A stretch of DNA of 64,000 bases from an uncultured Gemmatimonadales bacterium (lineage in GTDB: Bacteria; Gemmatimonadota; Gemmatimonadetes; Gemmatimonadales; GWC2-71-9): the NCBI GenBank assembly GCA_963828735.1, contig CAWHFW010000003.1:160001-224000 (forward strand). The letters run 5' to 3'. Positions within the stretch are counted from its first letter, which is position 1; every line of letters starts with the position of its first letter. Under the pieces are notes generated by a model. The model made no database searches and was not told where the DNA came from. It worked only from the letters and a program-made list of their open reading frames with translations. Shown here piece after piece: positions 60,851 to 64,000 of the stretch. The position numbers were made by a program, and so were the translations under genes.

Positions 60851-62515
60851 ATGGACCGCGACGCAACGTCTCAGACCGCAGCACCGGCTAACGCCGCCGC
60901 CCGGCTCGACGAGGGTCGGCAGGAGGAGCGCGCCGGCAACGTGGCGGCTGCAGAGGCGGCGTACCAGTCGTCCTGCGCGCAGTCCGAGGCAGCGGGCGAC
61001 CGGGTCACGCAGTCGATGGCCCTGCGGCACCTGGCGCTGCTCCAGCATCAGCGCGGCGCGGCGAGCCGGGCGACGGAGCTCGCGCGGCGCGCGTACGACG
61101 TGGCGCTCGCGGCCGGCCAGCGCGAGCTCGCCGCGCACGCGCTCAACGTCCTCGGCGGCTTCACCTTCGAAGGCGGCGACCTGGCCGCCGCCCGCCGCAC
61201 CTTCGACAGCGCCCTCGCGCTCGCGAGCGGCAGCATTGCGCTCCGCGCGCGTATCGAGCAGAACCTCGGCATCCTCGCGACCGTGGAGGGCAACCACGAC
61301 GCGGCCATGGGCCACTACGGGCGGAGCCTCGACGCGTACGTGGCCCTGGGGGACGAGGGCGGCGTCGCGCTCGCGTATCACAACCTGGGCATGATCAGCG
61401 CCGACCGGGAGCGCTGGGAGGAGGCCGACAGCTACTTCCGGCACGCCTTCCAGGGTGCCGAGCGCGCGGGCGACATCCACCTCCAGGGCCTCTGTCTCCT
61501 GAACCACACCGAGGTCCACCTCGCCCGGCAGTCGTACGACCTGGCCCGGGCCGGGATCGAGCGCGCGCTGGGCATCTTCGACCAGCTCGAGGCGCGCATC
61601 GACAAGGCCGACGCCTACCGGATGCTCGGCGCCGTGCACCGGGTCACCGGCCAGCTCGAGTCGGCGGAGCGCAACCTGCTCCGCGCCCGCGGACTCGCGG
61701 ACGAGATGCAGTCGGTGCTCGGCGGCGCCGAGACCAACCGCGAGCTCGCGCTCCTCTATCAGCAGCTCGGCCGCAACCGGGACGCGCTCCACGCGCTCAA
61801 CCTGTCGTACCAGCTCTTCCGCCGGCTCAACGCGCGGACCGAGCTGGTGGACGTCGGGCGCAAGATCGGCGACCTCGAGGGAACCTACCTTCGAGTCGTC
61901 CACGAGTGGGGCCAGTCGCTCGAGTCGGCGGACAGCTACACCCACGGCCATTGCGGCCGGGTGGCGGAGTACGGACTGGCGGTCGCCCGCGCGCTCGGCT
62001 TCGACCCCGGTCAGCTCACGGCGATCCGCCTCGGCGCCTACCTGCACGACCTGGGCAAGGTCCGGATCCCGGAGGAAATCCTCAACAAGCTGGGCAAGCT
62101 CACCGTCGAGGAGTTCGAGACGATCAAGATGCACCCCGTGTGGGGCCTCGAGATGCTGACCGAGGTGGACTTCCCCTGGGACCTCAAGCCGATCATCCGC
62201 TGGCATCACGAGAAGCACGACGGCTCGGGCTACCCCGACGGGCTCAAGGGCGACGAGATCCCGGTGGCCGCGCAGGTGATCTGCATCGTGGACGTGTACG
62301 ATGCGCTCACGACGACGCGGAGCTACAAGCCGGCGTATACGCCGTCGGAGGCGTTGGAGCGGATGGCCGAGGTGACGCACTGGTGGCGGCCGGACGTGTA
62401 CGAAGCGTTCCTCGAGGCCGTGGGGCGGCCGGAGGTGCGGCGGCACGTGGAGGCGCCGCGGCACGTCGCGGCGCGGGCGATCTCGGACGAGGAACTGGGG
62501 GAGGCGGCGGCGTAG
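60851..62515 (+). CDS. TPR + HD-GYP cyclic-dinucleotide phosphodiesterase
   Basis: Several TPRs (NLG repeats); DSYTHGHC.RV, LHDLGK, HHEKHDGSGYPDGL, DVYDALTTTRSYK. Confidence 0.93.
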   Translation: MDRDATSQTAAPANAAARLDEGRQEERAGNVAAAEAAYQSSCAQSEAAGDRVTQSMALRHLALLQHQRGAASRATELARRAYDVALAAGQRELAAHALNVLGGFTFEGGDLAAARRTFDSALALASGSIALRARIEQNLGILATVEGNHDAAMGHYGRSLDAYVALGDEGGVALAYHNLGMISADRERWEEADSYFRHAFQGAERAGDIHLQGLCLLNHTEVHLARQSYDLARAGIERALGIFDQLEARIDKADAYRMLGAVHRVTGQLESAERNLLRARGLADEMQSVLGGAETNRELALLYQQLGRNRDALHALNLSYQLFRRLNARTELVDVGRKIGDLEGTYLRVVHEWGQSLESADSYTHGHCGRVAEYGLAVARALGFDPGQLTAIRLGAYLHDLGKVRIPEEILNKLGKLTVEEFETIKMHPVWGLEMLTEVDFPWDLKPIIRWHHEKHDGSGYPDGLKGDEIPVAAQVICIVDVYDALTTTRSYKPAYTPSEALERMAEVTHWWRPDVYEAFLEAVGRPEVRRHVEAPRHVAARAISDEELGEAAA

Positions 62516-62831: not shown

Positions 62832-62943
62832 CGGTGCAGGCCGCGCCGTAGGCCTTTGAGGTTGGGTCGAGGGGCTGATGCCGAAGTAGCCCCCTGGTGC
62901 GATGTCGGTTTCGCGGTACCATAGTGTTCCGACCTATGAGGGT

Positions 62944-63826
62944 ATGCGCCTGCCCTTCGAGCCCGACCATCAGTACGTCCGCCATCCCTTCGCGACCGCG
63001 ATAACGACCGCGGGCCGGGTGCTGTTCACCCGGCCCGGCGGGCCGGTTAAGCACTGCACGAACCCAGACCCCGGGGCTGCATCGGAGTTGTGGGACGCCC
63101 TGGCGAGGCCGATCCGCGGACGCGACCTGGTTTCCCGGTCCCGCCTGGAGCCGAGAAGTGCCGCGGCTCTCATGGAGTTTCTGCTCGAGCACCAGATTGT
63201 CATGCCTTGGACCCTGACGGAATCCGAGCCCACCGACTCACGGCCGGATCTCGAGGACACGGTGCGGCCCTGCCATCATCTCGTCTTGGGTATCACGGGC
63301 GCGGTGCAAGCCGTGTTCGCTCCGCACATCGTTCAGCGTCTCGCATCCCACTTCACCGATCGACTCGACGTAGTGCTCACCGAGTCCGCCCAGAAGTTCG
63401 TACAGCCGAGGTCGCTGTCGGTTCTGGGCGTTTCCGTCTGGTCCGATCCGTTTGACCCTCTGGAGGCCGGCAGGGTCATCCACATCGAGCTGGCGACACA
63501 GGCGCAGCTGGTCTTGGTGTATCCAGCCACGGCGGATGCGATCTTCCGCCGGCGCACGGCTCTGCTCCGATCTCCTCTCCTTGATCGTGAGTGCCACGGT
63601 AGCGCCGGTCGTCATCGTGCCCAGCATGAATCCCGCCATGTGGCGGCACCCGCCCACCCAACGCAACCTCCGGACATTGCGGGACGACGGTGCCTTCGTG
63701 GTGGAGCCCGGTCCGGCAAGGTCGGCGGCGAGTCGAGCGGACAGCGAGGCGGGCGGACCCGGACTAGGACCGGACGCCGCGAACCTGATCGGCATTCTGG
63801 AAGCCATCCTGCATCTCAACAGATGA
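62944..63826 (+). CDS. HFCD flavoprotein (LanD/EpiD-like Cys decarboxylase) with RRE-like N-terminal domain; apparent frameshift at about 63550-63560
   Basis: LVLGITGA, VLTESAQKFV, VIHIELA, PATADAI in one frame; CSDLL..PVVIVPSMNPAMW..NL..L..DG..VVEP in the next frame; no CoaB domain. Confidence 0.8.
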
Positions 63827-63998
63827 ACCCCTCCGGTGACTGGGGGAGATGGAACTGCTGGGGATCCTCGACCACCTCGATCTCCTCCGACTCTGATACG
63901 GTTACACCGTACTCGCCTAACACTGTCCTCGGGTCTGCCTTGAACCGTTCTCTGAAGGCCGGATCGGCCCACGCCCGCTCTACGATCTGCCGGTAGAT
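63816..63998 (-). CDS. NHLP-leader-like peptide ending in Cys (5' end outside window; not in the ORF track)
   Basis: Manual translation from 63998: IYRQIVERAWADPAFRERFKADPRTVLGEYGVTVSESEEIEVVEDPQQFHLPQSPEGFIC*. Confidence 0.78.
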   Translation of the reverse strand: MYRQIVERAWADPAFRERFKADPRTVLGEYGVTVSESEEIEVVEDPQQFHLPQSPEGFIC

Positions 63999-64000
63999 AT

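Follow-up and report, generated by a model that had tools for sequence, protein, structure and literature searches.

A LanD-like flavoprotein with a putative N-terminal RRE, paired with a YcaO cyclodehydratase and a Cys-ending NHLP-type peptide, may form a C-terminal thiazole in Gemmatimonadales

The NHLP-Burk TOMM clusters (TIGR03795/TIGR03903) are a bioinformatic family described by Haft, Basu, and Mitchell in 2010 (main text of PMC2887384), and no product of this family was found in the literature searched. In TOMM biosynthesis, a cyclodehydratase joins a side-chain nucleophile to the backbone amide and removes water, and the resulting ring is then aromatised by a dehydrogenase (PMC2887384). 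According to the same text, classical NHLP precursors have an ELSD...GG leader end and a Cys/Ser/Thr-rich core, and a peptidase-ABC exporter is encoded nearby. LanD enzymes oxidise the free thiol of a C-terminal Cys and release CO2, leaving an enethiol; EpiD needs this free thiol and fails on S-alkylated substrates (main text of PMC8549060). The YcaOs of daptide clusters cyclise the C-terminal residue only after its decarboxylation (main text of PMC12338566).

The window analysed here is a whole stretch of 64,000 nucleotides from an uncultured Gemmatimonadales bacterium (genome G000, contig C3), and its end lies inside a small gene cluster. A flavoprotein gene (62944..63826, forward strand) and an NHLP-type peptide gene (63816..64000, reverse strand) are convergent there, and the 11-nt overlap at 63816-63826 noticed earlier is reproduced. 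The sequence-only reading proposed this pair as a candidate RiPP system and considered AviCys formation in case a dehydratase lies beyond position 64000. The RiPP assignment is supported. Beyond the window, a YcaO cyclodehydratase gene adjoins the peptide gene directly, with a conserved kinase gene divergent from it. No dehydratase is present next to the peptide, where the YcaO gene is found instead. The gene order is YcaO and peptide on the reverse strand, the convergent flavoprotein on the forward strand, and the kinase on the forward strand on the other side of YcaO. These four genes are best explained as one RiPP module. No sigma-70-like promoter or Rfam match was found at the locus, and neither a peptidase nor an exporter is conserved in this type of cluster. 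The labelled datasets holding the locus sequence are soil and rhizosphere metagenomes, and no RNA dataset is among the listed holders. Upstream of the flavoprotein, window positions 60851-62515 encode a protein with TPR and HD-GYP-type domains, which is not seen by the other loci. The far contig end (about C3:248000-269104) contains actinobacterial-looking genes, among them MMPL-like ones and SAM methyltransferases, and repeats the MFS gene of C3:232502-233428; it is possibly a chimeric join (genome contamination 5.17%).

The layout is closest to that of the NHLP-Burk family, and the cluster is of TOMM type as judged from the sequence of its C-D enzyme. Shared with NHLP-Burk clusters, as described in PMC2887384, are the fused C-D cyclodehydratase, the NHLP-type precursor without a double-glycine motif, the large Ser/Thr kinase alongside, and a precursor C-terminus of Cys or Cys-Cys. 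The peptides match a Burkholderia NHLP-Burk member in a profile comparison (P 96%). Their best E-value against TIGR03795 is 6.5e-5, and the cluster's match to TIGR03903 scores 134 bits, where the cut-off is 706. NHLP-Burk precursors are 114-120 aa long and in tandem, whereas those of the present type are 69-81 aa and mostly single, with a tandem only in L019. The kinase/cyclase fusion of NHLP-Burk also differs from the zinc-ribbon kinase-TPR protein found here, and no HFCD is annotated in L131, the single NHLP-Burk-type locus inspected.

The flavoprotein is about 294 aa long when intact, and its PF02441 match is divided between two frames. An in-frame ATG upstream at 62902 is a possible alternative start. 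The frame is broken near 63550-63561, and intact homologs align across this site with 75% and then 83% identity (tblastn). Of the four short-read runs compared, three, each belonging to a different study, gave contigs with two extra bases here, and the contigs of the fourth break at this spot. The two extra bases in the contigs of three studies indicate that the frameshift is an assembly error and that the gene is intact in nature. Among 926 candidates, 15 homologs of 241-322 aa were recognised.

The N-terminal region (62944..63213, forward strand) was modelled with AlphaFold (pLDDT 87) as strands followed by three helices; the model covers the first 104 residues, of which about 90 form the RRE-like part. 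Its best VIA match is the RRE of PbtF (8t19, Z 10.6, rmsd 1.9, 79 aligned). Further Z scores are 10.2 for BmdC and 9.2 each for ThcOx, TigE, and MccB, and lower ones are 8.1 for MibB, 8.0 for TbiB1, and 7.6 for PqqD. RiPP or NRPS-tailoring proteins account for seven of the eight best VIA rows, but 2xdv, a winged helix unrelated to RiPPs, also reaches 9.3. Foldseek returns the same names with an E-value of 2.8e-3 at best and none below 0.001. The model points to a PqqD-like RRE fold of three strands and three helices.

The HFCD catalytic domain (63277..63826, forward strand) contains a conserved His (IHIEL) and the motifs PATA and PSMN, and has no ACG-type clamp Cys. A model of the intact homolog P0002 (pLDDT 90) matches SpaF (8.5e-15) and TvaF (1.5e-13) in Foldseek, and also CoaBC, MrsD, CypD, and EpiD. 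The active-site His is kept in 103 of 108 family members, and P-x-M-N is nearly invariant. From its motif position, this His is taken to be equivalent to His67 of EpiD. That residue of EpiD is tied to thiol activation (PMC8549060). Both the HFCD motifs and the RRE fusion, proposed earlier from the letters alone, are upheld by these matches, and the flavoprotein is predicted from motifs and models to be a LanD-like cysteine decarboxylase with an N-terminal RRE fold. It resembles EpiD, MrsD, CypD, TvaF, and SpaF in fold, catalytic His, PxMN, and a substrate ending hydrophobic-hydrophobic-Cys. The LanD chains with solved structures consist of one domain, 162-176 residues in length, whereas the present family has the additional N-terminal RRE; EpiD does not need a leader (PMC8549060). 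Another difference from AviCys RiPPs is that the YcaO-linked clusters have no dehydratase.

The peptide gene (whole gene C3:223816-224025, reverse strand) starts 25 nt past the window, and completion gives the NHLP-type precursor proposed earlier a length of 69 aa. It ends ...LPQSPEGFIC, and the terminal Cys is its single Cys. The YcaO stop and the peptide gene are 54 nt apart, and this gap contains a GGAGG-type ribosome site. The precursor matches PF02979 (NHase-alpha) over the cut-off and TIGR03793 with 42.6 bits, below the cut-off of 50.9. A search with the single sequence found only itself, while a four-row alignment found 20 proteins: the 4 queries, 9 new short Cys-ending peptides, and 7 others. 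The frame-broken P0193 and six longer NHLP/nitrile hydratase proteins not ending in Cys were left out of alignment A6. The related peptides thus number 16 (7 from YcaO-linked loci and 9 from the protein search), which are kin and not independent. TIGR03793 is matched at E<=0.01 by 15 of them. By these sequence matches, the peptides appear homologous to nitrile hydratase alpha, with the metal-binding Cys motif missing. Two further NHLP-profile matches in the genome are real nitrile hydratase and not precursors.

All 16 related peptides end in Cys, while among the long coding-like ORFs in the genome 15 of 1450 do, so the terminal Cys is not due to chance. Thirteen of the 16 have it as their single Cys, and no other cyclisable residue is shared by the whole set. 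The sequence F-I-C fits the EpiD preference, as had been remarked, and the EpiD substrate rule (quoted in PMC8549060) is fitted by 14 of the 16. The idea that the terminal Cys is forced by the 11-nt gene overlap, present in five of the six loci, was rejected because non-overlapping peptides (L130, the second peptide of L019, L024, and L026) keep it. The peptides stop about 8-17 residues past the NHLP body, the tail length varies, and most have one Cys. The precursor has no double-glycine leader end, unlike classical NHLP precursors, and no peptidase-ABC exporter was found among the flanking ORFs examined.

Directly upstream of the peptide, a fused C-D cyclodehydratase of 723 aa (YcaO) is encoded at C3:224080-226251 (L001:6080-8251) on the reverse strand. 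It exceeds the cut-offs of PF02624, TIGR03604 (248 bits against 219), and TIGR03882 (69.5 against 36.9), and matches LynD (E 2e-141), TruD (1e-139), and MusD (2e-133). The motifs EAIERY, ELVERD, and RALTE are kept, together with a seven-residue NP tail. DSNGxAAG, which SagB-linked YcaOs keep, is changed to DPSG or DSSG in four of the five HFCD-linked YcaOs; this may reflect altered or lost activity.

The divergent gene (about C3:226420-229522, forward strand; split near 229250 in the assembly) encodes a zinc-ribbon Ser/Thr kinase followed by a membrane helix and a TolB-N/TPR part. HRD and DFG motifs and the hydrophobic helix are kept. Orthologs are encoded by all four other genome loci, and the best match of each is the cluster kinase among 95 kinase-like ORFs of the genome, narrowly for the cut copy of L130. 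A chance adjacency among 95 kinases was rejected because the same ortholog is present by five of five genome loci, including the present one. SagB-type clusters carry other kinases, which have no zinc ribbon (7/7). A Peptidase C25-like gene is found between kinase and YcaO at L128:5660-7138 (G1289).

The layout of YcaO, peptide, and convergent RRE-HFCD is seen in six loci: the present one, L019, L008, L128, L129, and L130. Besides G000, the carriers are G388 (two peptides; its YcaO gene is split in the assembly), G1289, G1482, G1371, and the metagenome contig L008. All seven peptides end in Cys, and the suggested co-occurrence of flavoprotein and Cys-ending peptide is thereby seen in homologs. 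The carriers are infrequent: 2/401 phylum, 2/103 genus, and 4/401 family genomes. A sample of Acidobacteriota (phylum of G481) gave 1/401. Eight family members were found among the 80 matches listed in a genome-collection scan, which are mostly CoaBC, and four of eight loci in a metagenome scan are members. No plasmid record covers 80% of the flavoprotein. The RRE-HFCD family itself is broad, with 317 clusters at E<=1e-30, some CoaBC counted in. When 37 of the best 150 matches, many of them chosen by length, were compared with Pfam, 20 were methyltransferase fusions, 1 a LanC fusion, 3 CoaBC, and 13 had the flavoprotein domain only. Across phyla, a coding-like Cys-ending ORF is found within 500 nt in 10 of 27 RRE-HFCD loci versus 3 of 77 CoaBC/CoaC loci (Fisher p 4e-5 without the present locus; the loci are partly kin). 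The other 17 RRE-HFCD loci have no such ORF within 500 nt, but the present locus is counted there by a script artefact, and several are short contigs.

YcaO clusters of the same family without the flavoprotein serve as a control. A search of 241 same-family genomes gave 15 carriers with 16 YcaO places; three were known flavoprotein clusters, and 13 were fetched. Three (L150, L156, and L160) have no NHLP and were dropped. The other 10 have an NHLP but no HFCD, and none of their peptides ends in Cys; internal Cys/Thr is present instead. A SagB azoline dehydrogenase is directly downstream in nine of the 10 (eight of the nine were checked, and all exceed the TIGR03605 cut-off), and in L155 neither SagB nor HFCD was found or annotated beside YcaO. 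No SagB was found in the fetched flanks of the six HFCD loci (only 1.5 kb for L008) or anywhere in G000; one of five carrier genomes (G1371) has SagB on another contig. Two oxidative partners alternate in one slot, SagB with internal residues and RRE-HFCD with a terminal Cys. As 0/10 control peptides end in Cys and 9/10 control loci have SagB, the RRE-HFCD appears from the sequences to replace SagB in the cluster slot. The contrast rests on one or two origins, since four of the five HFCD-linked YcaOs form one branch. In the Burkholderia-type locus L131, the peptide ends in CC beside YcaO, and neither SagB nor HFCD was found or annotated; a terminal Cys can therefore occur without the RRE-HFCD flavoprotein. 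The commoner cluster type of this family consists of kinase, YcaO, NHLP, and SagB (L151-L154, L157-L159, L161, and L162), and in three of its peptides the tail lacks Cys and ends PQ(I/F)TIP(L/F).

From these sequence patterns, the flavoprotein very probably acts on the terminal Cys of the precursor, and we infer that this Cys is the only residue which the two enzymes can share. The NHLP body would be bound by the RREs of both enzymes. The flavoprotein would oxidise the C-terminal Cys thiol, and CO2 would be lost to leave a (Z)-enethiol (-46 Da). In the ATP-dependent step of YcaO, the amide that links Ile to the decarboxylated residue would then be activated, and the enethiol sulfur would close the ring with loss of water (-18 Da). 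The predicted product is an aromatic decarboxylated C-terminal thiazole, net -64.016 Da. As the C=C is already present, the ring would be aromatic and no azoline dehydrogenase would be needed; this route could account for the missing SagB, the flavoprotein filling the place held by SagB in the sister clusters. A terminal decarboxylated thiazole made by decarboxylation first and cyclodehydration afterwards is considered slightly better than an even bet. The need of EpiD for a free thiol favours this order. The net mass change is the same as that of AviCys, so mass alone would not separate the two products. The weakest step is the last: the whole protein or its trimmed tail could tentatively be seen as a signal connected with the membrane kinase encoded next to it, a role guessed from co-conservation.

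It is extremely improbable that the flavoprotein is a CoA-pathway PPC decarboxylase and an accidental neighbour of the peptide. Several homologs carry this database name, and the best NCBIfam matches are CoaBC/CoaC, though far under the cut-off (112 bits versus 219.7); no NCBIfam model is over the cut-off for the seven family members tested, and the ESM Atlas match is no more specific than a 'flavoprotein domain' cluster. In PPC decarboxylases, a clamp Cys serves the reductive half-reaction, and the title of PDB entry 1mvn (C175S with aminoethenethiol) agrees with this role. The clamp Cys (ACG motif) is found in 71 of 74 CoaBC/CoaC controls, against none of the 108 RRE-HFCD family members. The flavoprotein has an RRE and no CoaB domain, and separate CoaBC and UbiX are encoded in the genome. 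The CoaBC of G000 (L004, G000:C1:16762-20265) has LAEG in place of the ACG found in most CoaBCs. A tree of 47 HFCD domains separates the RRE-bearing proteins from CoaBC with support of 100/99, and places five YcaO-linked HFCDs in one supported branch with nine proteins of unknown context. The patchy spread (4/401 family genomes), each time beside a Cys-ending peptide, also argues against a CoA-pathway enzyme. Very unlikely as well is the AviCys-like ring of the sequence-only reading. In this cluster, Ser(-6) would have to be dehydrated by the kinase together with a hypothetical lyase, or be directly displaced, for the enethiol to close onto it. Ser/Thr is located at -6 in 8 of the 16 peptides, which exceeds the expectation for a random position; LanD-like enzymes are reported to cyclise unmodified Ser/Thr, inefficiently (main text of bioRxiv 2020.02.13.947028); and other RRE-HFCD loci adjoin LanB or LanC genes (L020, L021, L116, and L026), the L026 peptides having Ser at -6. 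The known spacing is, however, two or four residues between Ser/Thr and Cys, i.e., -3 or -5 (bioRxiv 2020.02.13.947028), positions occupied in 0 and 2 of the 16, and the ring would span 7 residues against 4-6 in known rings (main text of PMC10989515). In five of the 16, including those of the full clusters L128, L129, and L130, the final 10 residues contain neither Ser nor Thr. LanB (PF04738), LanC (PF05147), and HopA1 (PF17914) are matched in none of the five carrier genomes (84-97.5% complete), while LanB and LanC were matched in all three other genomes used as positive controls; the search covered these three families. YcaO would be left with no role, and the kinase is membrane-anchored with intact catalytic motifs, unlike the pseudokinase cyclase RosX. 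With none of these three families matched in the five genomes and Ser/Thr at -6 in only half of the peptides, the proposed ring from Ser(-6) loses its footing. Judged by the features found, the cluster belongs neither to the AviCys RiPPs nor to the classical double-glycine NHLP type, and its flavoprotein is no PPC decarboxylase.

The remaining alternatives concern the use of the terminal Cys. The two steps might be reversed, so that YcaO first makes a thiazoline carboxylate (-18 Da), which the flavoprotein then oxidatively decarboxylates to the thiazole. Bottromycin, where a cytochrome decarboxylates an azoline (main text of PMC7136475), is a precedent, and the mutual exclusion of SagB and HFCD is fitted equally well. 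Yet S-alkylated peptides are not converted by EpiD (PMC8549060), the His connected with thiol activation is retained in the family, and direct YcaO action on a terminal residue is seen only after decarboxylation (PMC12338566); the reversed order is quite unlikely. Somewhat unlikely, too, is that the enethiol is made but used by YcaO in a different way, in a macrocyclic thioimidate or thioamide via a distant amide or in a link to another protein, or that YcaO has degenerated into a scaffold and an enethiol or aldehyde is the end product. Such outcomes are consistent with the DSNG change in four of five HFCD-linked YcaOs, with the hydrolysis of enethiols to aldehydes (bioRxiv 2020.02.13.947028), and with the lack of a conserved exporter or peptidase; they fit less well with the Glu/Arg motifs and seven-residue NP tail being kept, with YcaO being present in all six loci, and with the varying length between NHLP body and Cys, which suits local chemistry over a fixed ring.

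Outside YcaO clusters, RRE-HFCDs adjoin LanB, LanC, or radical SAM genes or carry a methyltransferase, and many have a neighbouring Cys-ending peptide whose leader is unrelated. Loci with LanB or LanC (L026:2422-5247, L024:3466-4467, L116:8855-12779, L020, and L021) are candidates for true AviCys lanthipeptides; the double-glycine peptides of L024 and L026 end S-R-x-x-x-x-C, and P0029 is an RRE-HFCD-LanC fusion. Three methyltransferase fusions from the phylum of G479 (Myxococcota; L118:7348-9526, L119:7909-10021, and L123:593-2708) are directly behind the ribosomal-operon tufA and two small lipoprotein-like Cys-rich ORFs ending C-x-C, which suggests decarboxylation and S-methylation of a lipoprotein tail. 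Five other fusion loci (L064, L120-L122, and L124; L120 at a contig end) have no tufA/C-x-C neighbour. The acidobacterial L025:6655-11059 contains a radical SAM gene, two peptides ending NNCVAGC, an M50 peptidase-like gene, and RRE-HFCD, and may be of the syc (AviCamCys) kind, whose logic it resembles. At L117:8201-14551, a Corallococcus-type RRE-HFCD (P0050 cluster) is accompanied by radical SAM, ABC transporter-like, and sulfotransferase-like genes, and no Cys-ending peptide was found nearby.

The full reading has about even chances of being correct: an RRE-LanD flavoprotein and a cyanobactin-type YcaO would make a decarboxylated C-terminal thiazole with no dehydrogenase, as an undescribed RiPP class and probably a signal for the co-conserved membrane kinase, and RRE-HFCD would be a mobile module whose enethiol is trapped in other ways elsewhere, by LanB/LanC, radical SAM enzymes, or a fused methyltransferase. 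Several described systems share parts of this logic. C-terminal decarboxylation and YcaO cyclisation onto the preceding amide, predicted here, are known from the imidazoline branch of daptides (DapBCDM and DapY), where an RRE is also present on the decarboxylase complex (PMC12338566). The daptide system uses Thr, an NAD-dependent two-component decarboxylase, an amine nucleophile, and five proteins (PMC12338566), whereas the present system uses Cys, a flavoprotein, a sulfur nucleophile, and two enzymes, with a predicted aromatic product. The predicted end group is the same as in bottromycin, a decarboxylated C-terminal thiazole (PMC7136475), but there a stand-alone YcaO acts before follower removal and the decarboxylation of the azoline is done by the cytochrome. 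Capture of a LanD enethiol by a non-dehydratase partner, again predicted here, resembles syc/AviCamCys (SycA/C/D), where a radical SAM enzyme, instead of YcaO, links the enethiol to Asn as a thioether (PMC10989515). The present LanD-YcaO combination can also be set beside another one. Thioamitide clusters hold YcaO and LanD together, with YcaO/TfuA making thioamides and LanD making AviCys. No RRE-fused LanD and no LanD-YcaO route to a terminal thiazole was found in the open-access literature searched (among others PMC4603692, PMC7470986, PMC11162475, PMC10849128, PMC12291118, PMC10989515, and bioRxiv 2020.02.13.947028), and the pairing of LanD with YcaO in an azole-RiPP system may be new.

The known fates of LanD enethiols are reaction with dehydroamino acids or capture by radical SAM enzymes, and capture by YcaO would be a third. 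If true, it would constitute a two-enzyme route to a C-terminal thiazole, which is the end group of several drug-like peptides. The mutually exclusive pattern of SagB and HFCD makes this chemical prediction sharp. Used together, a leader-directed decarboxylase and a cyclase could serve to cap the C-termini of peptides. The locus also offers a way into the still uncharacterised clusters of NHLP and kinase of the NHLP-Burk type, and uncovers a widespread, misannotated family of RRE-HFCD proteins.
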